From: Candidatus Margulisiibacteriota bacterium
GTDB taxonomy: Bacteria > Margulisbacteria > WOR-1 > O2-12-FULL-45-9 > XYB2-FULL-48-7
DNA length: 64,000 nt
Direction of reading: 5' to 3'
Assembly: GCA_041650855.1 (NCBI GenBank)
Contig: JBAZKJ010000002.1
Span: 69,076 to 133,075 of the forward strand
Shown here: positions 3,005 through 62,151 of the stretch, piece after piece
Layout: the number at the start of each line of letters is the position of its first letter
Numbering within the stretch: the stretch's first letter is position 1
Notes under the pieces: model-generated
Databases searched by the model: none
The model's input: only the letters and a program-made list of their open reading frames with translations
Told to the model about the DNA's origin: nothing
Position numbers and translations under genes: made by a program

Positions 3005-4429
3005 ATGCGAAAATATCTGATTTTATTGTTCATTGTCTGCCTGACATTGCCCGGCCTGGCCGAGAATGCCGAAAAAACCTTTAAGCTCAAAGACCTGCCC
3101 GATGACCACTGGGCCGCTTCCGCCGTGTACGACCTGGTCAAGCTCGGAGTGACCAAGGGATATCCCGACGGCACTTTCCGCGGCGATAAACCGATCAATC
3201 GCTACGAAGCGGCGATCTTTTTGTCCAAACTGGCCAAGTCGATCGGCAGCGACGATCTCAAGGCGGAGATCAAACAGTTGCGCGACCAGGTCGTGGTCCT
3301 GCAGCAGGCGCCGAAGGAGGAGCTGGTCGTTACCGGCCATTACGAGGGGGACTGGAAAGCGGGCAACGTGCTCTCGTCCAGCGGCGCCTCGCGCGAAGGG
3401 GTGGCCAATTACCGCCTGAAAATGACGGCCAAAAAAGAGCTGAGCGAGAACGCCGACATCAAGATCAACCTCGACACGATGGACTACGGTTATTTTGACG
3501 ACGGCTCGCTGGGCCAACCGGGGCGCGGTTTGCTGGCGACCGACCTGCTCGACATCGAATCGAACATCAATCTGAACCTGTCCGACTGGCGGTTAGCGCA
3601 CCCGGTCGCGCTGAAATTGACCTACGGCCCCGGCGCCAAGCAGCACGCCGCCGATCCGACCGGCGCTTTTCCGAGCGAGATCGGCACCACTTTTGTCCGC
3701 CCGGAGACCGGCATCCTGGCCTCGACCAAGCTGTTCGGCGCCGACGTCAAGGGGGGCTATTACTCGCTGCAGAGCGCGACCCTGGAAACATCGGGCCAGA
3801 TCAACACGAGCCGGATCACCGGCGGCCTCGGCTTTACGCTCGAGCGCTTTCTTCTGGCCAACGCGCTCCGGATCGACCTGACCGGCGATTACATTTCCAG
3901 CGGACTGTTCTCCTCCAACGAACGGAGCATTAAAGCCAAGGTTGACCTGCTGGCGCCGCTGGGGGACAAAGCGCAGGCCAGTACGACGATCGGTCTCGGC
4001 AAAAAGAACAGCCAGATGATGGTTGCCGGTTCGCTGGCCTTGAACGACCTGTGGGAGACCGGCACGGTGTTGACCGTTAAGCTGGCCAAGATCGGCGCCG
4101 AATACATCGATTCCCGTTTTGCCGGCGAAAAGTTCGACCTGGCCGGCTACGATTATTTTAACCGGCCGTACGAGAACGCGACCGTCAACCTGGGCGGCGA
4201 ACTGGTGCAGATCGTTTCCGATAAGGCCCAGCTGGTCGGTAAGGGCGACGTCCGCCTGGCCGGCGACTACCAATACCGGGGACCGCTCGCGCGGTTGACC
4301 GCCCAGGGCGGCATCCGGTACAACCTGGCGCCCAACGTGAACTTTGACGCCGCTTACCGCGTTTACCACGACAAGGCGCAAAACGATACCAGCGACCTGG
4401 CCCAGGTCGGCCTGCTTTATAAATTTTGA
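3005..4429 (+). CDS. SLH-domain outer-membrane beta-barrel (porin-like) protein
   Basis: Signal peptide; SLH motif DLPDDHWAASAVYDLVKLGVTKGYPDGTFRG..INRYEAA; coiled coil; beta-rich C-terminal region ending in Phe (LLYKF). Confidence 0.8.
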   Translation: MRKYLILLFIVCLTLPGLAENAEKTFKLKDLPDDHWAASAVYDLVKLGVTKGYPDGTFRGDKPINRYEAAIFLSKLAKSIGSDDLKAEIKQLRDQVVVLQQAPKEELVVTGHYEGDWKAGNVLSSSGASREGVANYRLKMTAKKELSENADIKINLDTMDYGYFDDGSLGQPGRGLLATDLLDIESNINLNLSDWRLAHPVALKLTYGPGAKQHAADPTGAFPSEIGTTFVRPETGILASTKLFGADVKGGYYSLQSATLETSGQINTSRITGGLGFTLERFLLANALRIDLTGDYISSGLFSSNERSIKAKVDLLAPLGDKAQASTTIGLGKKNSQMMVAGSLALNDLWETGTVLTVKLAKIGAEYIDSRFAGEKFDLAGYDYFNRPYENATVNLGGELVQIVSDKAQLVGKGDVRLAGDYQYRGPLARLTAQGGIRYNLAPNVNFDAAYRVYHDKAQNDTSDLAQVGLLYKF

Positions 4430-4953
4430 TCATCGGCAAGAAGGTCGTCCGCCTCGCCCAAGTCGATTCCACCAATGAGGAAGCGCGCCGCCTGATCAAG
4501 CAGGGCGAGGGGGAGGGCTTGGTGGTGATCGCCGCCAGCCAGACGCAGGGGCGGGGGAAGCCGGGAAGCCGGTGGCTCTCTCCGGCCGGTAATCTGTATT
4601 TTTCCGCGGTCGTCAAACCGTACCGCGATCCGCGCGCGCTCGCCTCGATCACCCTGATCGGCGCGCTGGCCGCCCGGCGCGCGCTGGCCGGGATCGCCCG
4701 TTTGACCGTCGTCATCAAATGGCCGAACGACCTGCTGGTGCGGGGAAAAAAGATCGGCGGCGTGCTGACGGAGCGGGTCCCCTCCGGACACCTGATCATC
4801 GGGATCGGCCTGAACCTGAACGCCGCTCCCGCTCTCCCCACGGCGACCTCCCTGAAAAAAGAGCGCGGCCGGGGCTGCCGCGTTGACCGGTGCGCGGCGC
4901 TGCTGGCGGCCGCCCTGGAGCGGGAGTACCTTGCCTATCTGGGCAAAGTCTGA
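4426..4953 (+). CDS. birA: Biotin--protein ligase, catalytic domain only (no N-terminal HTH)
   Basis: STNEEA, QTQGRGKPG..W, KWPNDLLV.GKKIGGVLTE, IGIGLN; TTG start overlapping upstream TGA. Confidence 0.92.
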   Translation: MIIGKKVVRLAQVDSTNEEARRLIKQGEGEGLVVIAASQTQGRGKPGSRWLSPAGNLYFSAVVKPYRDPRALASITLIGALAARRALAGIARLTVVIKWPNDLLVRGKKIGGVLTERVPSGHLIIGIGLNLNAAPALPTATSLKKERGRGCRVDRCAALLAAALEREYLAYLGKV

Positions 4954-54932: not shown

Positions 54933-54943
54933 TTTCTAATCGA

Positions 54944-55016
54944 GCGGGAGTAGCTCAGTTGGTAGAGCTTCTGCTTCCCAAGCAGAAGGTCGCGGGTTCG
55001 AACCCCGTCTCCCGCT
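54944..55016 (+). tRNA. tRNA-Gly (anticodon CCC)
   Basis: GCGGGAG/CTCCCGC acceptor stem, TCTGC-TT-CCC-AA-GCAGA anticodon arm, GGTTCGAAC T-loop; no CCA. Confidence 0.95.
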
Positions 55017-55027
55017 TTTTTTCTTGC

Positions 55028-55098
55028 GGCGGCATGGCCGAGTGGTTAGGCAGCGGTCTGCAAAACCGTTTACTCCAGTTCGAACCTGGATGCCGCCT
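55028..55098 (+). tRNA. tRNA-Cys (anticodon GCA)
   Basis: GGCGGCA/TGCCGCC acceptor stem, GCGGT-CT-GCA-AA-ACCGT anticodon arm, U73; no CCA. Confidence 0.95.
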
Positions 55099-55228
55099 TA
55101 TGTTACAATATACCGGATACCGGGAAGAATGCGCGCTTAGCTCAGCTGGTTAGAGTACTTGTCCCGATGGTCATTATAATAGATAATAATGGAATCATCG
55201 GGATCCCGATTCGATCAGCATCATCATT

Positions 55229-55302
55229 GCGCGCTTAGCTCAGCTGGTTAGAGTACTTGCTTGACAGGCAAGGGGTCACTGGTTCGATCCCAGTAGCGCG
55301 CA
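55229..55302 (+). tRNA. tRNA-Val (anticodon GAC), intact, nested in the insert of the outer copy
   Basis: GCGCGCT/AGCGCGC acceptor stem, CTTGC-TT-GAC-AG-GCAAG anticodon arm, GGTTCGATCC; no CCA. Confidence 0.93.
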
Positions 55303-55333
55303 ATGATGAGTTGGCCCCATCGGGACTTGACAG

Positions 55334-55358
55334 GTGCCTCGACTTCGCTCGGCACAGG
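55334..55358. repeat. Small hairpin element in outer tRNA-Val anticodon arm
   Basis: GTGCC-TCGACTTCGCTC-GGCAC; ACAGG is duplicated on both sides. Confidence 0.75.
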
Positions 55359-55403
55359 CAAGGGGTCACTGGTTCGATCCCAGTAGCGCGCATTCTTCTT
55401 TTT

Positions 55404-55916
55404 TTATGCCGCCAGGAATGCCAACAAATGCCTGATGATCGTGGTGGGAGAGGGAGGGCAGCCGGGGATATGCAGATCGACCTTGAGGACCTTATCGACC
55501 CCGCCCAGCGTGTAATACGAATCCTTGAATAATCCCCCGTTCAACGCGCAGTCGCCCACGGTGATGACAAATTTCTCCCCCGGCAGCGCTTCGTAAGTCT
55601 TCTGCAGAGCCAACAGCATGTTGCGGCTGACCGGGCCGGTCACCAGCAAGGCGTCGGCGTGCTTGGGCGAGGCGACAAAACTGACACCGAACCGCTGGAT
55701 GTCATAGATCGGGTTGGTGGTCGAGATGATCTCCGATTCGCAGGCGCCGCACGAGCCGGTGTCGACCTCGCGGATCTGGAACGACCCCTTGAACCGCCGG
55801 TCGATGACCCGCTTTAATTCTTTCCCCAAGGCTTCAACCTCGGCGGTCAGCTCCTGGCGCGGCAGATCGACGATCCCCTGGCGCAGACGGTTTTTGATCA
55901 TCTTTAACAGTGCCAT
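55404..55916 (-). CDS. Ehr/group-4 small Fe-S subunit (NuoB/HycG-like)
   Basis: DTGSCGACE, HADALLVTGPV, GDCA..GG, IPGCPP. Confidence 0.92.
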   Translation of the reverse strand: MALLKMIKNRLRQGIVDLPRQELTAEVEALGKELKRVIDRRFKGSFQIREVDTGSCGACESEIISTTNPIYDIQRFGVSFVASPKHADALLVTGPVSRNMLLALQKTYEALPGEKFVITVGDCALNGGLFKDSYYTLGGVDKVLKVDLHIPGCPPSPTTIIRHLLAFLAA

Positions 55917-57484
55917 TACAGGTCGTTCCCCGCGTAAGAAAGATCAAAGCTCTTGTTGCAGAGCGGAAAGTCGGGGATGATCTCCCCCTGGGCGGCGTAG
56001 GAAAGTCCTTCCCAGTTATGGAAAGAAGGATCGACGATCTTGCACCGTTCGATCTTCCCTTCATTGTCCAGCTTCAGCCAGTAGAGGACCGGGCCGCGCC
56101 ACCCTTCAACTGCTCCCAACCCGTAACCTTCGACCGGAGAGGGGGCCGTAACCGTCAAATCACCGGGGAGAAGCTGCCCGAGAAAATTGCTGATCAATTC
56201 GCTCGATCGCTTGAACTCCAGCAACCGCATTTTTAGCCGGGCCAGGCAATCGCCGGTTTCCTGGACGACCGGCTGGAAGCCGGCCGATCGGTACGGCTCA
56301 AGGTCGGCGCGCAGGTCGCGCGGCAGGCCGCAGGCGCGCGCGGCCAGGCCGAGCACGCCGATATCTTCGGCGGTCTTCCGGCGGAGAATGCCGGTCGAAT
56401 CGACCCGGTCGATAAAACTGGCGCTGTTGAACAGTATCCCCTCCAGCTCTTTCAAGTCGATGGTCAAAGAGAGGAGCTTGGCAGTCAGCTCGGCGGCCAG
56501 GTTCTTATCGAGGTCCTTGGCGACGCCGCCGACCAGATTGATCCCCTTCAAATAACGGCTGCCGGTCAGCCGGTCGTTCAGCTGCAGCATCCTCTCTTTC
56601 TGGACCGAGGCGAACGAGGCGGCAAAGGTGAAACCGACGTCGAGCGCGATCCCGCCGATGTCGTTGAGATGGTTGGACATCCGCTCCAGTTCCAGATAAA
56701 CGGCACGGAGCAAGACGGCGCGCGGGGGAGGCGTCAAGCCGAGCAGCTTTTCCGACGCTAGCACAAAGGCCAGGCTGTGGGCAAAAGCGGAGTCGCCGGC
56801 CACGCATTCGCTTAAACGGAGCCCTTCGATCAAAGTTTTCCCTTCCATGATCTTTTCCACGCCGCGATGAGTAAAGCCGAGCCTGATTTCCAGGTTAATG
56901 ATCGGTTCCCCGGCGACGCTGAAGCGGAAATGGCCCGGGCCGATGATGCCGGCGTGCACCGGCCCGACCGGTATTTCGAACAACCCTTCGCCTTCGCCTT
57001 TGATAAAATCGTAGGACTGTCCGGTCGGCCCTGCGGCCGACGGGGCGACGAAGTCTTTGCGGAGCGGGAAAACGCCTGCCGGCCAGACCTCGTCGTGCAG
57101 CCGCAAGCGGCGCAGGTCGGGGCTCCCCTCCAGGTCGATCCCGAACATCTCCCGGATCTCCCGTTCGAACAAGCTGGCGGAATAGATCTCTTTAGCCAGG
57201 GAAGGGAACGACTCGGCCCCCGCCGGGAGATCGAGGCAAACGTAGAACCAGTGCCGCTCCGCCGCCGCGTAGAAAGCGGTGTTGAGCCGGAAACAGGAGC
57301 GCGTCCGCCGCTTATCTTCCGCGAACATCATCATGACCGGCGAGGCGCAAAGCTTGTGCAGGGCCAGACAAGCGGGGATAAAATCGGCCGGCTTGACCGT
57401 CAAATAACTTTCCCCCGGTATCTTGGCGTTGACCGTGACCGGTTCGATCTTATATTTGCCGTGTAACTCTTCCCTGATACCCAT
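55916..57484 (-). CDS. Ehr large subunit (NuoCD/HycE-like) lacking NiFe ligands
   Basis: GPVHAGIIGPGHFRF, THRGVEK, ELER..NH, VEGWRG, KIVDPSF; L1 reads ECVAGDSAFAH and L2 reads DLSYAGNDL (no CxxC). Confidence 0.9.
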   Translation of the reverse strand: MGIREELHGKYKIEPVTVNAKIPGESYLTVKPADFIPACLALHKLCASPVMMMFAEDKRRTRSCFRLNTAFYAAAERHWFYVCLDLPAGAESFPSLAKEIYSASLFEREIREMFGIDLEGSPDLRRLRLHDEVWPAGVFPLRKDFVAPSAAGPTGQSYDFIKGEGEGLFEIPVGPVHAGIIGPGHFRFSVAGEPIINLEIRLGFTHRGVEKIMEGKTLIEGLRLSECVAGDSAFAHSLAFVLASEKLLGLTPPPRAVLLRAVYLELERMSNHLNDIGGIALDVGFTFAASFASVQKERMLQLNDRLTGSRYLKGINLVGGVAKDLDKNLAAELTAKLLSLTIDLKELEGILFNSASFIDRVDSTGILRRKTAEDIGVLGLAARACGLPRDLRADLEPYRSAGFQPVVQETGDCLARLKMRLLEFKRSSELISNFLGQLLPGDLTVTAPSPVEGYGLGAVEGWRGPVLYWLKLDNEGKIERCKIVDPSFHNWEGLSYAAQGEIIPDFPLCNKSFDLSYAGNDL

Positions 57485-58882
57485 TTAGCTCCCCCGCAAG
57501 ACGCTGACCGCCGCGTCGAGGCTCTGGCGCAAGACATTGGGGATGAATATCCCCAAACCGATGATAAAAATAAGCAGGAACCCGTAAGACAACCAGCCGC
57601 CGATCGGTTCGGCCGGAGAAACGGTCTGTTCCAACGGCCGCCCGAAGAGGACCTTGCCGAAATGATAGAGGAGGGCGCCGCCGATCACCGCCAGCAGGCC
57701 AAGCAGGAGCGCGCCGATCAGGTAATGACCGGCGATGAACGCGGCGCCGACCAGATAGAACTCGCTGACGAAGACGGCGCCGGGCGGAAAGCCGATCAGG
57801 GCGAAAATACCGACCAACAGAGCAAGCCCGGTCACCGGCAGCGCGCGGCCGACGCCCGAGATCTTGGCCAGGTCGTGCGTGCCGTAGGCTTGGGCGACGC
57901 GGCCGGCGCCGAAGAACATCAGCGCTTTGCCGACCGCGTGGTTGAACAGGTGGAGGAGGGCGCCGAACATCGCCAGAGGGCTGTTGAGGCCGATCCCGAT
58001 CGCGATCAGGCCGAGATGCTCGATGCTGGAATACGCCAGGAGACGCTTCAGGTCCTTCTGGGTAACGATGAAAATGCACGCCACGATCAGCGAGAGCAGG
58101 CCGAAGAGGAGCATCAGGCTGGAATAGAACGGCGCCCCGCAGCAGCGCGTGACGACGATCCCGTAGCGTAAGATGGCGTACAGCGAGCATTTGAGCAGGA
58201 CGCCGGAGAGCATGGCGCTGGCCGGGGAGACCGCCTGGCTGTGCGCGTCGGGCAGCCAGGTGTGCAGCGGCGCCAGGCCGGCTTTGGTGCCGTAGCCGAC
58301 CAGGATAAAGATAAAAGCCACCTTAACGACTTGCGGGTTAAGCAGCTTGGCCGCGGCCAGCAGATCGGTCCAGTTCAGGCTCTTGAGCCCGGTCGCCGAG
58401 GAGAGCGCGAAGGTGAACAGGATCGCGCCGAACAAGGCCAGGGTGATGCCGACGGAACAGATGATCAGGTATTTCCAGGCCGCCTCGACCGAATGTTTGG
58501 AGTTGTAGAAGCCGACCAGGAAAGAAGAGATAAGCGTGGTCAGCTCGATCGCCATCCAGAGGAACCCGAGATTGTTGATCAACGGGACCAGGAACATCGC
58601 GGCGGCGAACAGGTTGAATAATAAATAATACAGCAGCGCTTTACCGGTAGTGATCTTCCCCTGCGCCAGGTCGTCGGCGATAAAGGAAATGGAAAAGAGG
58701 GCGGCGGCAAAAGTGACCGTGGCCGTCGTCAGGATCAGGAGAGCGCTCAGCGCGTCGACATAAAAGAGCGCGCCCAGGGGGATTTTCAGATTGCCGGCGC
58801 CGACCGTCGCCAGGAGATAAAGCGACACCAGCCAGATCAGAAAATGGCCCGCGGCGTTGATCAGGCCTGCTCGTTTGATCAT
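57485..58882 (-). CDS. Antiporter-like membrane subunit (HyfF-like)
   Basis: W.AIELTT, EAAWKY, GYGTKAGLAPLHTWLPDAH, KRLLAYSS.EH. Confidence 0.9.
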   Translation of the reverse strand: MIKRAGLINAAGHFLIWLVSLYLLATVGAGNLKIPLGALFYVDALSALLILTTATVTFAAALFSISFIADDLAQGKITTGKALLYYLLFNLFAAAMFLVPLINNLGFLWMAIELTTLISSFLVGFYNSKHSVEAAWKYLIICSVGITLALFGAILFTFALSSATGLKSLNWTDLLAAAKLLNPQVVKVAFIFILVGYGTKAGLAPLHTWLPDAHSQAVSPASAMLSGVLLKCSLYAILRYGIVVTRCCGAPFYSSLMLLFGLLSLIVACIFIVTQKDLKRLLAYSSIEHLGLIAIGIGLNSPLAMFGALLHLFNHAVGKALMFFGAGRVAQAYGTHDLAKISGVGRALPVTGLALLVGIFALIGFPPGAVFVSEFYLVGAAFIAGHYLIGALLLGLLAVIGGALLYHFGKVLFGRPLEQTVSPAEPIGGWLSYGFLLIFIIGLGIFIPNVLRQSLDAAVSVLRGS

Positions 58883-58883
58883 G

Positions 58884-59519
58884 TTAACCTTTTAACCCCG
58901 ACAGTTTGCTGACGTCGATATGGGTAAAGATCGCGTTGATCCGGTAAATGAACAGCCCCAGGATCATGACGCTGACCAGGATATCGAAGAACAGGGCGAT
59001 CTCGACGAAGAACGGCATTCCGCCGGGAATGACGGTCGCGGCCAGGAAAACGCCGTTCTCCGTCAGCAGCAGGCCGATGACCTGGGCGAGCGCCTTGATC
59101 CGGGTGACCATTAAAAATATTCCGGTCAGCATGACAAAACAAGCTACGCCCAAGGTAGCTTGCTCCAGGTAGGCGGGGGCGGGTATGACCATGCAGGCCA
59201 GCGACCAGGAGAGCAAACCGATGACGACGGTCAACAGCAGGGAAACCTGGGAGTTCACGAACAATCCCAGGTGGTCGCTGGAGCCGATCCGCTTGATCAG
59301 CACGTCGAAGAGATGCGGGATCAGCAAAACTTTTAAGCTGAACAGCAGGCAAGCGATCAGGTAAAGTTCCGGGCTTCCCTCGCGGTAGGCGGCGATCAGC
59401 GTCAGCAGGGCGAGGCAGAGCGATTGGTAGCGGAAATTACGCAAAAGCGCCGGGAAGCGGCTTACCAGCGCGGTTTCCGCGGTTATTAATAAAATTGCGA
59501 ACAGACAAAGCCAGACCAT
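58884..59519 (-). CDS. HyfE-like membrane subunit
   Basis: QVIGLLLTENG, GMPFFVEI..FFD; position in the cluster. Confidence 0.85.
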   Translation of the reverse strand: MVWLCLFAILLITAETALVSRFPALLRNFRYQSLCLALLTLIAAYREGSPELYLIACLLFSLKVLLIPHLFDVLIKRIGSSDHLGLFVNSQVSLLLTVVIGLLSWSLACMVIPAPAYLEQATLGVACFVMLTGIFLMVTRIKALAQVIGLLLTENGVFLAATVIPGGMPFFVEIALFFDILVSVMILGLFIYRINAIFTHIDVSKLSGLKG

Positions 59520-59524
59520 TTAAC

Positions 59525-60325
59525 TTATACCCCCAGGAGCGCGCTGACTACGGCCAGCAGCGCCAGGATCACGCCGAAAACGAGCAGGTCGGGGACCTTG
59601 AACAGCCGGTACTTTGCTGTCCCAACTTCGATCAGCGCGATCACGATGATCAGCACCGGCAGAGAGAGCAGGCCGAACACGCCGGCCAGCAGGCAAAGCC
59701 AGAACGCTTGCTTGATCTGGGCGGATAGTTCGATCAGCGCGAGCGCCGGGCCGGAATAATCGAGCAGCATCGCTTCGTGGACCATGGTCAGCTCCAAGTG
59801 AGTTTCCTGGTTATCGACCGGCAGGCGGGCCGTTTCCGCCAGGATGACGAGCAAGAGAGCGAGGCCGGCCAACAGGTGCGAGACCGACCAGCCTGCTCCG
59901 GGCGCCAGATAAAGAGTGAAAATGACCAGACAGGCCGCCGGCTCGACAAAACTGGCGATGAACATCTCCCGGGAGGCGCCGATCCCGCCGAAAGAACTCC
60001 CCGCGTCGAGCGCGGCTAACGCCAGGAAGAAGCGGCCGAGCGCCAGAACAAAAATGATCGCCAGCAAGTTGTCCGCCTGGAGTAAGATGACCGCGGTCAC
60101 GCCGGTCGCGAAAGCGATGAACGGAGCGGCCCGGAAGATCCAGGAGCTGTCGGCCGGGACGATCGACTCTTTGCCGAATAATTTCCAGAGCTGACGGTAC
60201 GGCTGAAAAATATCCGGACCTTGACGGAGACGGAGGTTATTCTTGATCTTGGCGATCAGGCCGCTAACCAAGGGAGCCAGCCCGATCACCAGGAACAACC
60301 GTAAGACGATCGTCATGCTTGTCAT
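59525..60325 (-). CDS. NuoH/HyfC-like membrane subunit
   Basis: RQGP...QPY..L.KL, ALD.GSSFGG.GASRE, AETARLPVDN, LELTMVHEAM.L.YSG. Confidence 0.9.
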   Translation of the reverse strand: MTSMTIVLRLFLVIGLAPLVSGLIAKIKNNLRLRQGPDIFQPYRQLWKLFGKESIVPADSSWIFRAAPFIAFATGVTAVILLQADNLLAIIFVLALGRFFLALAALDAGSSFGGIGASREMFIASFVEPAACLVIFTLYLAPGAGWSVSHLLAGLALLLVILAETARLPVDNQETHLELTMVHEAMLLDYSGPALALIELSAQIKQAFWLCLLAGVFGLLSLPVLIIVIALIEVGTAKYRLFKVPDLLVFGVILALLAVVSALLGV

Positions 60326-62151
60326 CAAAATACCCTCACCAGGAAGACCAGCAAGACCAGCGTGGCCAGAATATAAGAAATATACAGGTGGATGCTGCCG
60401 GCCTGGACCCGCTTAAACTGCCGGGCGGCGCGGAGCAATACGCCCAGGCTGGCGTCATAAAGATATTCTTTGAAGATCTTGGTCGTGTAGGTTTCGTAAA
60501 CGAACGATTTGACGTGATAAAAAGAATCTTTGACCTTCTCCGTTTTCCGGAAAGGGAGGAGGAAGAAACTGAAGCTGATCCGGAACGGTTTGGAAAATGC
60601 GGTAGCAGTGTATTCGTTCCGGCTGCCGACCTGGTAATAACCGCAATCCCAGGTCCGGCCGAGCCGGACCCGGTTGCCGGCCGTGAGCCGGTAAACGACC
60701 GCTGCGACGGTCAAGCCGCCGCCCAAAACCAGCGTGATGAACAACGGGGAGATCGCCGGACGACCGAGCGGCGGCAGGCCTAAACTGAAAAGATCGGTGA
60801 TCTGCGGGGTGGCGTGGCAGATCGGTCCGGCGACCCGGGCGATCAGGTTGAACACGGCCGGCGCCAGCAAACCGAGGCCGACCACTGCCGCCGCCAAAAA
60901 GGCCATGCCGAGCTGCATGGAGAAGGGAGATTCTTTGGCTTGCTCGGCCTCCCGGCCGCGCGGCAGCGCCAGAAAAGTGATGCCGAACGCTTTGACGAAA
61001 CAAGCGGCGGCCAGGCCGCTGGTCAGGGCGAGGGCGGCCGCGCCGAGCGCCAGGCCAAAGGCCAGGGTGCCGGGCACTTTGAGCGCGCCGGCGAAGAAAG
61101 TTTGAAGGATCAGCCATTCACTGACAAAGCCGTTCAGCGGCGGGAGCGCGGAAATCCCCATGGCCCCAACAAGGAAAAAAGCGGCGGTCCACGGCATCTT
61201 CTTGATCAATCCGCCCAATTTTTCCATGTCCAGGGTGCCGGTCCCTTTCTGGACGCTGCCGGCGCAGAGGAAGAGGAGCCCTTTGAAAACGGCGTGGTTG
61301 ACCAAGTGGTACAGGCCGGCGATCAGCGCCAGCGCGGCCAAGCTCGCCAAATTCAGGCGGGTAAAGACCATTGCCAGTCCCAGACCGAGCAGGATAATGC
61401 CGATGTTCTCGACGCTGTGATAAGCGAGCAGCCTTTTCAGGTCGTGTTCCATCAAAGCGTAGATCACGCCGACCAGGCAGGAGATCGTCGCCAGGACCAG
61501 GACAGCGACCCCCCACCAGAGCGAACTGATCCCCAGGACCAGAAAAACGAAACGGATCAGGCCGTAGAGCGCCGTTTTGATCATGACGCCGGACATCAGG
61601 CAGGAGATATGGCTGGGCGCCTGGGGGTGCGCGGCGGGGAGCCAGATATGGAGCGGCACGATCCCCGCCTTGGTCCCGAAGCCGATCAGGAAACAAAGGA
61701 ACAATCCGTTGCGGAGCAGGGGGGACATGGTTTGGCAGGCGGCGGCCATGGCGGCGAGATCGAACGAACCGGCGTGCCGGTAGATCAGGAAAATGGCGCC
61801 GGTCAGAAAAGCGGTCCCGCAATGGGTCATGATGATATACAGGGAGGCGGCGTTGACCGCGGCCTCGTTCTCGCTGTCGGTCAGGACCAGCAGGTAGGAA
61901 AGGAGCGTCATCAGTTCCCAGACGATCAGAAAGACCAACGCGTTCCCCGCGACTACCAGCAGCAGCATGGAGCCGATAAAAGCCAGGGTAATAAGCTGGG
62001 TGGTCAGGAGCTTGGCCCGGGTGAATTTCCCCCGCAAATAACCGAGCGAATAGACCAGGGCGGGAACGCTGACCAGGAGAATAACTGTTAGAAAATAGAG
62101 GGCGAGAGGGTCCAGTAATACCAGCGAGCGCAGATCAATAAGTAAGTTCAT
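60325..62151 (-). CDS. Antiporter-like membrane subunit (HyfB-like)
   Basis: WELMT, GFGTKAGIVPLHIWLP.AHP.AP, KRLLAYHSVENIG, LPPLNGFVSEW, WDCGY. Confidence 0.92.
   Translation of the reverse strand: MNLLIDLRSLVLLDPLALYFLTVILLVSVPALVYSLGYLRGKFTRAKLLTTQLITLAFIGSMLLLVVAGNALVFLIVWELMTLLSYLLVLTDSENEAAVNAASLYIIMTHCGTAFLTGAIFLIYRHAGSFDLAAMAAACQTMSPLLRNGLFLCFLIGFGTKAGIVPLHIWLPAAHPQAPSHISCLMSGVMIKTALYGLIRFVFLVLGISSLWWGVAVLVLATISCLVGVIYALMEHDLKRLLAYHSVENIGIILLGLGLAMVFTRLNLASLAALALIAGLYHLVNHAVFKGLLFLCAGSVQKGTGTLDMEKLGGLIKKMPWTAAFFLVGAMGISALPPLNGFVSEWLILQTFFAGALKVPGTLAFGLALGAAALALTSGLAAACFVKAFGITFLALPRGREAEQAKESPFSMQLGMAFLAAAVVGLGLLAPAVFNLIARVAGPICHATPQITDLFSLGLPPLGRPAISPLFITLVLGGGLTVAAVVYRLTAGNRVRLGRTWDCGYYQVGSRNEYTATAFSKPFRISFSFFLLPFRKTEKVKDSFYHVKSFVYETYTTKIFKEYLYDASLGVLLRAARQFKRVQAGSIHLYISYILATLVLLVFLVRVF

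Follow-up and report, generated by a model that had tools for sequence, protein, structure and literature searches.

Bacterial tRNA genes are thought, to our knowledge, to be interrupted only by self-splicing group I introns, which lie in the anticodon loop. Several short inserts at many positions of one tRNA gene are found in the multi-intron and split tRNAs of archaea, which are spliced by proteins. Here we describe a bacterial tRNA-Val(GAC) locus (55131-55392) in 64,000 nt of DNA from a Candidatus Margulisiibacteriota bacterium (contig JBAZKJ010000002.1; this whole stretch is called the window below). Its outer tRNA gene is split by two inserts, and the larger insert carries an intact, identical inner copy of the same gene. 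The nested tRNA-Val matches no described bacterial intron or mobile element, and no prior description of such inserts was found in a full-text literature search. The best reading, which we put forward tentatively, is that pairs of hairpins are intervening elements in a still-maintained outer gene and are removed from its transcript by some mechanism. This intron-like reading is ranked first, and a reading as selfish DNA that brings its own rescue copy is ranked second.

Organization of the nested tRNA-Val locus

An earlier note, made from the sequence of the window, had proposed that removal of 55162-55325 and 55335-55358 rebuilds a tRNA identical to the intact copy. We found by script that the outer exons of 31, 9 and 34 nt, once joined, match the inner tRNA-Val(GAC) at 74 of 74 positions. 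The features of the locus are as follows; promoter, trailer and T-tract were read from the sequence.

55101-55109, + strand: putative outer promoter, an extended -10-like box TGTTACAAT
55124-55130, + strand: outer leader GAAGAAT, pairing with A73 plus the trailer TTCTTC (55392-55398) as an inverted repeat
55131-55161 (31 nt), + strand: outer exon 1 with tRNA positions 1-30, comprising the acceptor 5' strand, the D arm and four anticodon-stem nucleotides; matches the inner copy at 31 of 31 nt
55162-55325 (164 nt), + strand: insert 1, two units, each bounded by TCCCGAT...ATCGGGA
55162-55203, + strand: hairpin A, first unit of insert 1, with foot TCCCGATG/CATCGGGA and AT-rich interior GGTCATTA..TAATGGAATC
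55204-55325, + strand: hairpin B (the cassette), second unit of insert 1, with foot TCCCGAT (55204-55210) / ATCGGGA (55319-55325)
55229-55302, + strand: inner intact tRNA-Val(GAC), 74 nt, CCA not encoded (ARAGORN; Rfam, 65 bits)
55326-55334 (9 nt), + strand: outer exon 2 CTTGACAGG, tRNA positions 31-39, anticodon loop, its 3' boundary ambiguous by 5 nt
55335-55358 (24 nt), + strand: insert 2, in which a 19-nt sequence, TGCCTCGACTTCGCTCGGC, forms an imperfect palindrome and is joined by a single copy of the 5-nt repeat ACAGG
55359-55392 (34 nt), + strand: outer exon 3, spanning tRNA positions 40-73: the 3' strands of anticodon stem and acceptor, the variable loop, the T arm and A73
55393-55405, + strand: outer trailer and T-tract TTCTTCTTTTTTT

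The division of insert 1 into two cassettes and the placement of the inserts at 30/31 and 39/40, both made in the earlier note, agree with these boundaries. Insert 2 can be placed anywhere from 34/35 to 39/40, the canonical 37/38 included, because it is flanked by the direct repeat ACAGG. The outermost 10 bp of insert 1, GTCCCGATGG/CCATCGGGAC, are perfectly complementary. Outer and inner copies are identical over their first 31 nt (32 counting T-1) and over their last 39 nt. Three ordered and exact tRNA pieces exclude a chance origin, and the hairpin pattern is expected by chance at 0.03 occurrences per window.

Both copies have an acceptor stem lengthened by pairing of leader and trailer, to 14 bp in total in the outer gene and 15 bp in the inner one. 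The inner leader TCATCATT (55221-55228) is complementary to A73 plus the trailer ATGATGA (55303-55309), that is AATGATGA, and the resulting stalk bears the inner tRNA. The 286-nt region, folded as RNA, has an energy of -129 kcal/mol (z = -8.1). Hairpin A folds at -19 kcal/mol and contains TATAAT at 55175-55180 and GATAAT at 55182-55187, which make it a putative promoter of the inner tRNA-Val gene; the exon/insert junction TTGTCC is a possible -35 element for the same gene. The T-tract downstream of the outer gene, which the earlier note had pointed out, is probably a terminator tail, and a simple terminator scan made no call at 55393-55405. An invertible-promoter switch was considered and rejected, the 26-nt segment between the repeats being too short and no recombinase being present. 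On the unspliced window, ARAGORN and Rfam called the inner copy and missed the outer one, so that such loci are invisible in current annotation; the joined outer exons were called as tRNA-Val(GAC) by ARAGORN.

Comparison with known introns and mobile elements

Group I introns of bacterial tRNA anticodon loops (in cyanobacteria and others) are similar to these inserts in interrupting the gene near the anticodon, in being mobile in principle and in their patchy occurrence. However, the inserts described here are mostly simple hairpins of 24-168 nt, and they also occupy the D stem, D loop, variable loop and T loop. Searches of the window locus and six related loci against Rfam at permissive E-values returned tRNA only, with no group I catalytic core (P3-P9) and no small self-cleaving ribozyme (hammerhead, twister, hairpin and others). 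CRISPR repeats, box C/D RNA and the hammerhead were also rejected, since their core motifs are absent from the sequence.

The likeness to archaeal tRNA introns extends to related inserts at different sites, as in the multi-intron tRNAs of Thermoproteales, for which intron transposition has been proposed, and to exons that join to a perfect tRNA while the inserts fold and leave the tRNA body free. The locus differs in its bacterial host, in the invariant foot, in the pairing of hairpins and in having a whole tRNA gene within one insert. Splice sites of archaeal type lie in a bulge-helix-bulge motif, with two 3-nt bulges separated by a 4-bp helix. At insert 1, G30 and C31 flank a perfect helix of 9-10 bp (GTCCCGATGG/CCATCGGGAC) without bulges; at insert 2, the sole 4-bp helix that can be read from the sequence, UGCC/GGCA, has loops of 8 and 3 nt on the same side of the stem. 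We know of no splicing endonuclease in the Margulisiibacteriota lineage, and no gene for an EndA-type splicing endonuclease or ligase was found at 47.9-63.7 kb of the window.

Repetitive extragenic palindromic (REP) elements, their REPIN doublets, transposable elements of the miniature inverted-repeat type (MITEs) and hairpin-ended IS200/IS605 derivatives are likewise tiny non-coding palindromes with conserved ends and variable interiors that occur as doublets, keep their hairpins by compensatory change and have no transposase inside. Terminal inverted repeats of the MITE kind, TCCCGA(Y)/(R)TCGGGA, are present on every main insert. In contrast to these elements, the inserts lie inside one tRNA gene, the exons abut the foot directly and one insert has a promoted cargo tRNA. 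Target-site duplication was not seen, as the exons rejoin exactly and only insert 2 is flanked by a 5-nt repeat. There were no dispersed extragenic copies: hairpins of either family (see below) have no other copy in the 64-kb window, and main-family hairpins are absent from the 8-kb flanks of the related loci L024, L059 and L113. REP and REPIN sequences go with a RAYT transposase and have a conserved 5' GTAG motif, and this motif does not occur in the hairpins.

Integrative elements that target tRNA genes with an attP tRNA segment follow the same logic, in that insertion is made harmless by imported tRNA sequence, and they, too, give rise to directly repeated tRNA parts; of the repeats here, the 39-nt one has its start in the anticodon loop. 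In contrast, the insert here is 164 nt and not kilobases long, brings a complete gene and not a 3' segment, and leaves the old gene split and not restored. This element is non-coding, and no tyrosine or serine recombinase was found within about 7 kb of it. The feet TCCCGA/TCGGGA are unlike the RYYYAAC/GTTRRRY ends of integron attC sites, and no integrase (intI) is nearby. Intervening sequences of 23S and 16S rRNA, which RNase III removes without religation, are similar in being bacterial hairpin extensions that are patchy and presumably removed. However, a fragmented rRNA is tolerated, but a tRNA cut in 2-4 places would have to be ligated, and the foot of the inserts here is invariant.

Recurrence in other Margulisiibacteriota

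Species-representative genomes were scanned with a shared 22-mer and metagenomes with the junction GGTTAGAGTACTTGTCCCGA. These scans, the second of which is a junction search of the kind suggested in the earlier note, yielded six further nested loci, so that the same nest is known from seven loci of independent assemblies of uncultured Margulisbacteria: the window, L059, L024/L131, L113, L127/L132, L130 and L199. The nest in L127 is identical to that in L132, which comes from a different metagenome, and the L199 locus is cut off at a contig end before the inner region. In L059 and L113 the nest is 86-90% identical to that of the window, and the coding flanks are 70-83% identical. Insert sites and outer/inner differences, taken from spliced alignment, were as follows.

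Window: inserts at 30/31 and in the anticodon loop; outer and inner differ at 0 positions
L059: inserts at 10/11, at 30/31, in the anticodon loop and in the T loop (56/57); 0 differences
L127: inserts at 30/31 and 56/57; 6 differences, all compensated
L130: inserts at 10/11 and 30/31; 3 differences
L131: inserts at 15/16, 30/31 and others; outer gene lacks the T-stem 5' strand
L113: inserts at 30/31 (5' side deleted), in the anticodon loop, in the variable loop and in the T loop; outer gene lacks positions 11-30

Positions 10/11, 15/16, 45/46 and 56/57 are further insert sites across the other loci, and insert 2 has orthologues in L059 and L113. Several features had not been noticed earlier: the inserts form a family of paired hairpins with an invariant 6-bp foot, as many as four or five sites of one gene are occupied, the 24-nt insert appears to belong to a second palindrome family found in either orientation, leaders and trailers are complementary, and the resident orthologue is the outer gene.

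Because the same architecture is present in six other independent loci, the nest is neither an assembly artefact nor a private accident. An assembly or chimera artefact was a natural concern, as the window is from a metagenome-assembled genome and two related contigs (L199 and L001) end in or near such loci. The seven loci come from different projects and assemblers, have diverged in sequence and keep one layout, the nest of L127 and L132 was recovered from two samples, and the repeats of 32 and 39 nt are probably shorter than typical assembly k-mers and reads. We therefore regard an artefact as hardly credible, and the recurrence refutes the collapsed assembly of alleles that the earlier note had listed. 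The L199 contig ends inside the nest (positions 1-100), and such loci may break short-read assemblies.

A decayed tandem duplication or triplication, in which copy 1 left its 5' part and copy 3 its 3' part, would account for the direct repeats of 32 and 39 nt and for two promoter-like boxes that resemble the ancestral box. However, five of the seven nests share the very same break point, 30/31 (L113 has lost this site to a deletion, and the L199 contig is cut off before it), the pieces of four genomes can be joined with nothing lost or gained at up to four sites, and the intervening material is a defined hairpin family and not spacer. The plain tandem duplication that the earlier note had named as a refutation was not seen: relatives have either the same nest or a clean uninterrupted gene, and no tandem tRNA-Val array was found among the relatives examined in the clade. 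This origin is already contradicted and very improbable; together with artefact it is largely excluded.

The junction scan of viral contigs gave a single match, in coding sequence with no tRNA, which is a chance match. Similarly, the hairpin-pair pattern occurred in 57 stretches of viral contigs, of which five passed a stricter two-hairpin filter and none was tRNA-linked.

Besides the nests, an AT-richer second lineage (L128, L129, L133 and L134; for example L134 8744-8951, - strand) has 1-3 tandem tRNA-Val-like units of 94 nt beside thrS, upstream of an intact tRNA-Val(GAC). Each unit consists of positions 1-30, a minimal TCCCGAC(NN)GTCGGGA hairpin and GGGTCACTGGTTC, and one unit also has a TCCCGATAAATCGGGA hairpin in the D region. 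The junction ACTTG/TCCCGA is thus also present outside the Margulisbacteria clade, as these units have it.

Form and mobility of the hairpin inserts

Main-family inserts consist of two tandem hairpins, each with the invariant 6-bp foot TCCCGA...TCGGGA, and are not accompanied by target duplication. They read exon-G, TCCCGA...TCGGGA, TCCCGA...TCGGGA, C-exon, with the flanking bases C and G exchanged in the T loop, and were found at TTAG^CTCA, TCAG^CTGG, CTTG^CTTG and GTTC^GA. The seventh base pair of the foot covaries (U-A, C-G or G-C), and interiors vary and stay paired; the smallest hairpins are little beyond the foot and a short loop. Over five nests, 99.2% of cells were paired and 8 pairs had double changes, which none of 500 shuffles matched; controls with slid alignments of the same nests gave 34-41% paired. 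In the leader-trailer stalk under the inner tRNA, three pairs had double changes. Insert hairpins fold at -13 to -22 kcal/mol. Eleven of 14 are stabler on the sense strand, and G.U pairs are conserved in the hairpin A family and present in the L130 foot.

The hairpin A family sits at 30/31 in the five nests where this site is intact and visible, and it is also found at 15/16 in L131 and at 56/57 in L127, with constant orientation. Its presence at three different sites shows that it has moved. The center of each pair, TCGGGATCCCGA (55196-55210 in the window; every pair in L059, L127, L130 and L131), is a 12-nt perfect palindrome containing GGATCC, and the insertion sites are themselves centers of short palindromes (AG^CT, TC^GA). 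These sequence features suggest that a symmetric, dimeric DNA-binding enzyme is the recognizer.

A second palindrome family, CCCGAG..CGAGGG with tandem G.A, makes up the variable-loop and T-loop inserts of L059, L113 and L131. The 24-nt insert of the window appears to be a reverse-oriented member of this GCCGAG..CGAGGC / CCCGAG..CGAGGG family. The family also occurs in trailers and among the tRNA-Gly fragments of L082. In this contig (1-900), three tRNA-Gly 3' parts were seen, two of them scrambled around a TCCCTCGG..CCTCGGGA palindrome, together with a duplicated tRNA-Cys 3' end and a plain tRNA-Val. A truncated GIY-YIG open reading frame (58 amino acids, L082 255-431) lies among the duplicated tRNA-Gly fragments. 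It is a member of the ubiquitous small GIY-YIG family; two close homologues have unrelated surroundings, and neither the window nor any other nest has one. As a lead it was set aside, not rejected. In L131, a chimeric tRNA-like sequence (3404-3484, - strand; the same place as the second L024 match; Rfam 27.6 bits) joins the D and anticodon arms of tRNA-Val to an AT-only acceptor, with a CCCGAGCTTAAACGAGGG hairpin replacing the T arm. It occupies the place at which L082 has its plain tRNA-Val together with the same trailer hairpin.

One explanation of this structure is that the locus acts as a structured unit of RNA or DNA, either as a decoy or as a scaffold for processing or regulation (transcription, maturation or stability) of the inner tRNA, with outer parts that are kept for shape and not for decoding. 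Covariation of the leader-trailer helices in both copies, the fold z-score of -8.1, the conserved -10-like boxes in hairpin A with a possible -35 at the junction, and the better conservation of hairpin A and insert 2 than of the cassette arms are consistent with it. We consider it improbable, as it leaves unexplained the exact retention of every exon, anticodon loop and D loop included, relatives do well with a plain gene, and Rfam matches tRNA only.

The outer gene is the resident gene

In L192 and L193, whose lipid kinases are 89% and 87% identical to that of the window, the tRNA-Val gene is uninterrupted. Upstream of it lies TTATGTTATAATTTA(C/G)CGG(G/A)AAGAAT, and its trailer is TTCTTTTT in L193 and TTTATTCCGAG... 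in L192; the outer trailer of the window resembles the plain-gene trailers TTCTTTTT and ATCTTTTTTT. The putative outer promoter TGTTACAAT, noticed in the earlier note, is orthologous to TGTTATAAT, which precedes the plain gene in three relatives (L192, L193 and L002) and, in L059, the outer gene, and AAGAAT/TTCTT flanks like those of the window outer gene are also found on the plain genes of L031, L121, L192 and L193. Because plain relatives have the outer promoter and leader (L193 also the trailer), we identify the outer gene as the resident orthologue, to which the inserts were added. In L002 (hydrogenase subunit identity 88%), the plain gene has an inner-type leader and an outer-type trailer, the combination expected after recombination between a nest's direct repeats.

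Conservation and integrity of the outer gene

Comparison between genomes gave 0-5 differences over the 74 positions of the outer exons (0-7%) and 0-6 over those of the inner tRNA. In contrast, cassette arms mostly differ by 35-65% (single comparisons range from 3/16 to 14/22), near saturation; the hairpin A interior differs by 7-43%. The outer exons are thus conserved like a working tRNA. After joining, they were called as tRNA-Val(GAC) by ARAGORN in the window, L059, L127 and L130, and these four have perfect cloverleaves even with 2-4 insert sites and with exons down to 9-10 nt. No gene was called by ARAGORN on the joined L131 exons, and a call on those of L113 was rejected as a forced-alignment artefact, since positions 11-30 are absent.

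The outer gene of L127 has the sequence of the window gene, of the plain L002 and L031 genes and, over the parts compared, of L193, and removal of its inserts would give contiguous junctions such as GGTCACTGGTTCGATCCCAGTAGCGCGCA and CACTGGTTCGATCCCAGTAGCGCGCA. It is thus the inner gene that changed, at six positions, while the outer kept the ancestral sequence, so that copying from the inner gene cannot explain the integrity of the outer. Besides, exons of 8-22 nt in L059 and L113 are unlikely to have been kept by gene conversion that spares the inserts.

These observations bear on the second-ranked explanation, in which a selfish, non-autonomous, site-specific palindromic DNA kills the tRNA-Val gene it enters and the promoted inner copy rescues the cell. 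In a single-copy gene, only the variant with a complete and promoted tRNA-Val would be viable, and the dead outer gene would then serve as a landing pad. We regard this as a serious, if somewhat doubtful, possibility. The integrity of the outer exons would then be due to invasion that was recent or repeated, to the locus having spread horizontally as a whole, or to gene conversion. The conservation, the L127 sequences and the short exons described above speak against this explanation. So do the lack of target-site duplication in the main family, the lack of any transposase, integrase or autonomous copy seen, and the absence of a further hairpin copy from the 64 kb.

Several findings favor selfish DNA or weigh against the intron-like reading. 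About six independent secondary insertions are all in outer copies, with 0 in the 6 visible inner copies and 0 in the 7 plain genes examined, a pattern that lethality of such inserts in the only functional gene would produce. Deletions that end at inserts have broken two of the seven outer genes, those of L113 and L131, and the outer gene is therefore dispensable. The second family occurs in both orientations, which points to insertion at the DNA level, and insert 2 has its 5-nt direct repeat. The junctions occupy the base of an uninterrupted helix and not a bulge-helix-bulge motif, and we know of no non-self-splicing tRNA intron, nor of machinery or an enzyme for one, in bacteria. The -10 box of the window outer gene reads TACAAT where the plain relatives and L059 have TATAAT, and it may be a weakened promoter. 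No nuclease or ligase candidate was found at 47.9-63.7 kb. A recombinase or transposase was not found there either, which speaks against selfish DNA, and the earlier note had also seen no integrase or transposase nearby. For selfish DNA also speak the invariant foot with variable interior, which resembles terminal repeats read by a transposase, the T arms of inner and outer copies, which change together between clades, and the mixed flanks of L002. Nests are patchy among close relatives (with neighboring genes 87-89% identical at the protein level, L192, L193 and L002 have plain genes) and are easily lost.

Both explanations that the earlier note had offered, a rescue-copy element and a processed or spliced nested precursor, remain, with no clean decision between them from the data: that the outer exons are conserved favors the precursor, whereas the outer-only secondary inserts and the two broken genes favor the rescue element.

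In the intron-like reading, the outer gene would still be used and the inserts would act as introns. The transcript from the outer promoter would fold as a cloverleaf from which closed hairpins protrude; that closed-hairpin inserts would let the cloverleaf form is a point in its favor. Further points for it are the greater sense-strand stability of most hairpins, the constant orientation of the hairpin A family at its three sites, and the absence of the hairpins from the rest of the 64 kb and from the 8-kb flanks in relatives. A factor that recognizes the invariant foot would cut at the base of the hairpin pair, and the exon ends, positioned by the tRNA fold and the flanking G-C, would be ligated. 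RNase P and a 3' nuclease, together with addition of CCA, might mature the tRNA-bearing insert, or the inner gene might be transcribed independently from hairpin A. The outcome would be two tRNA-Val molecules from one locus. It is possible, and we hold this narrower proposal with more reserve, that the hairpin pairs represent a novel kind of mobile intron in bacterial tRNA, dependent on an enzyme and not self-splicing. The UCCCGA/UCGGGA foot would be recognized, the helix cut at its base and the exons religated, and because one member would carry a complete tRNA gene, a single transcript would give two tRNAs.

If the outer gene is expressed, there would be a protein-dependent tRNA splicing pathway in bacteria with a novel sequence-specific nuclease, as well as a physiological role for a bacterial RNA ligase, and the origin of tRNA introns and split tRNAs could be tested outside archaea and eukaryotes. 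If it is dead, a tiny non-coding element would enter an essential single-copy gene by bringing a promoted replacement, and the wrecked gene would then gather more elements.

Genomic neighborhood

Two uninterrupted members of a tRNA cluster precede the locus (ARAGORN, Rfam).

54943-55017, + strand: tRNA-Gly(CCC)
55028-55098, + strand: tRNA-Cys(GCA)

The same Gly-Cys-Val order is found in L002, L031, L059, L113, L121 and L193. In the closest strain-level relative (L001, L194), the tRNA cluster is absent from either syntenic position, and hence no allele comparison could be made; L001 has an HlyIII-like gene (4514-4676) where the window has the cluster. In L192, two genes for 23S rRNA intervening-sequence proteins (PF05635; 1-128 and 4618-5022) are close to the plain tRNA cluster.

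The hydrogenase small subunit and the lipid kinase next to the locus also place the genome in Candidatus Margulisiibacteriota. Genes near the locus or common to the nests are housekeeping only (a GGDEF protein, pyrD/pyrK, membrane-bound hydrogenase, YegS-type lipid kinase, a sigma factor and TatD). In the window, a group-4-like membrane-bound hydrogenase/complex-I-like operon (55404-62151) lies between the tRNA cluster and the YegS-type lipid kinase; its members include a NuoB-like protein, a fused 30K/49K large subunit and antiporter-like subunits. Near the cluster there is instead the kinase in L113, L193 and L031, and a kinase/sigma-factor block in L059 and L121. As the position of the kinase relative to the tRNA cluster differs among the window and its relatives, synteny around the nest has been rearranged.

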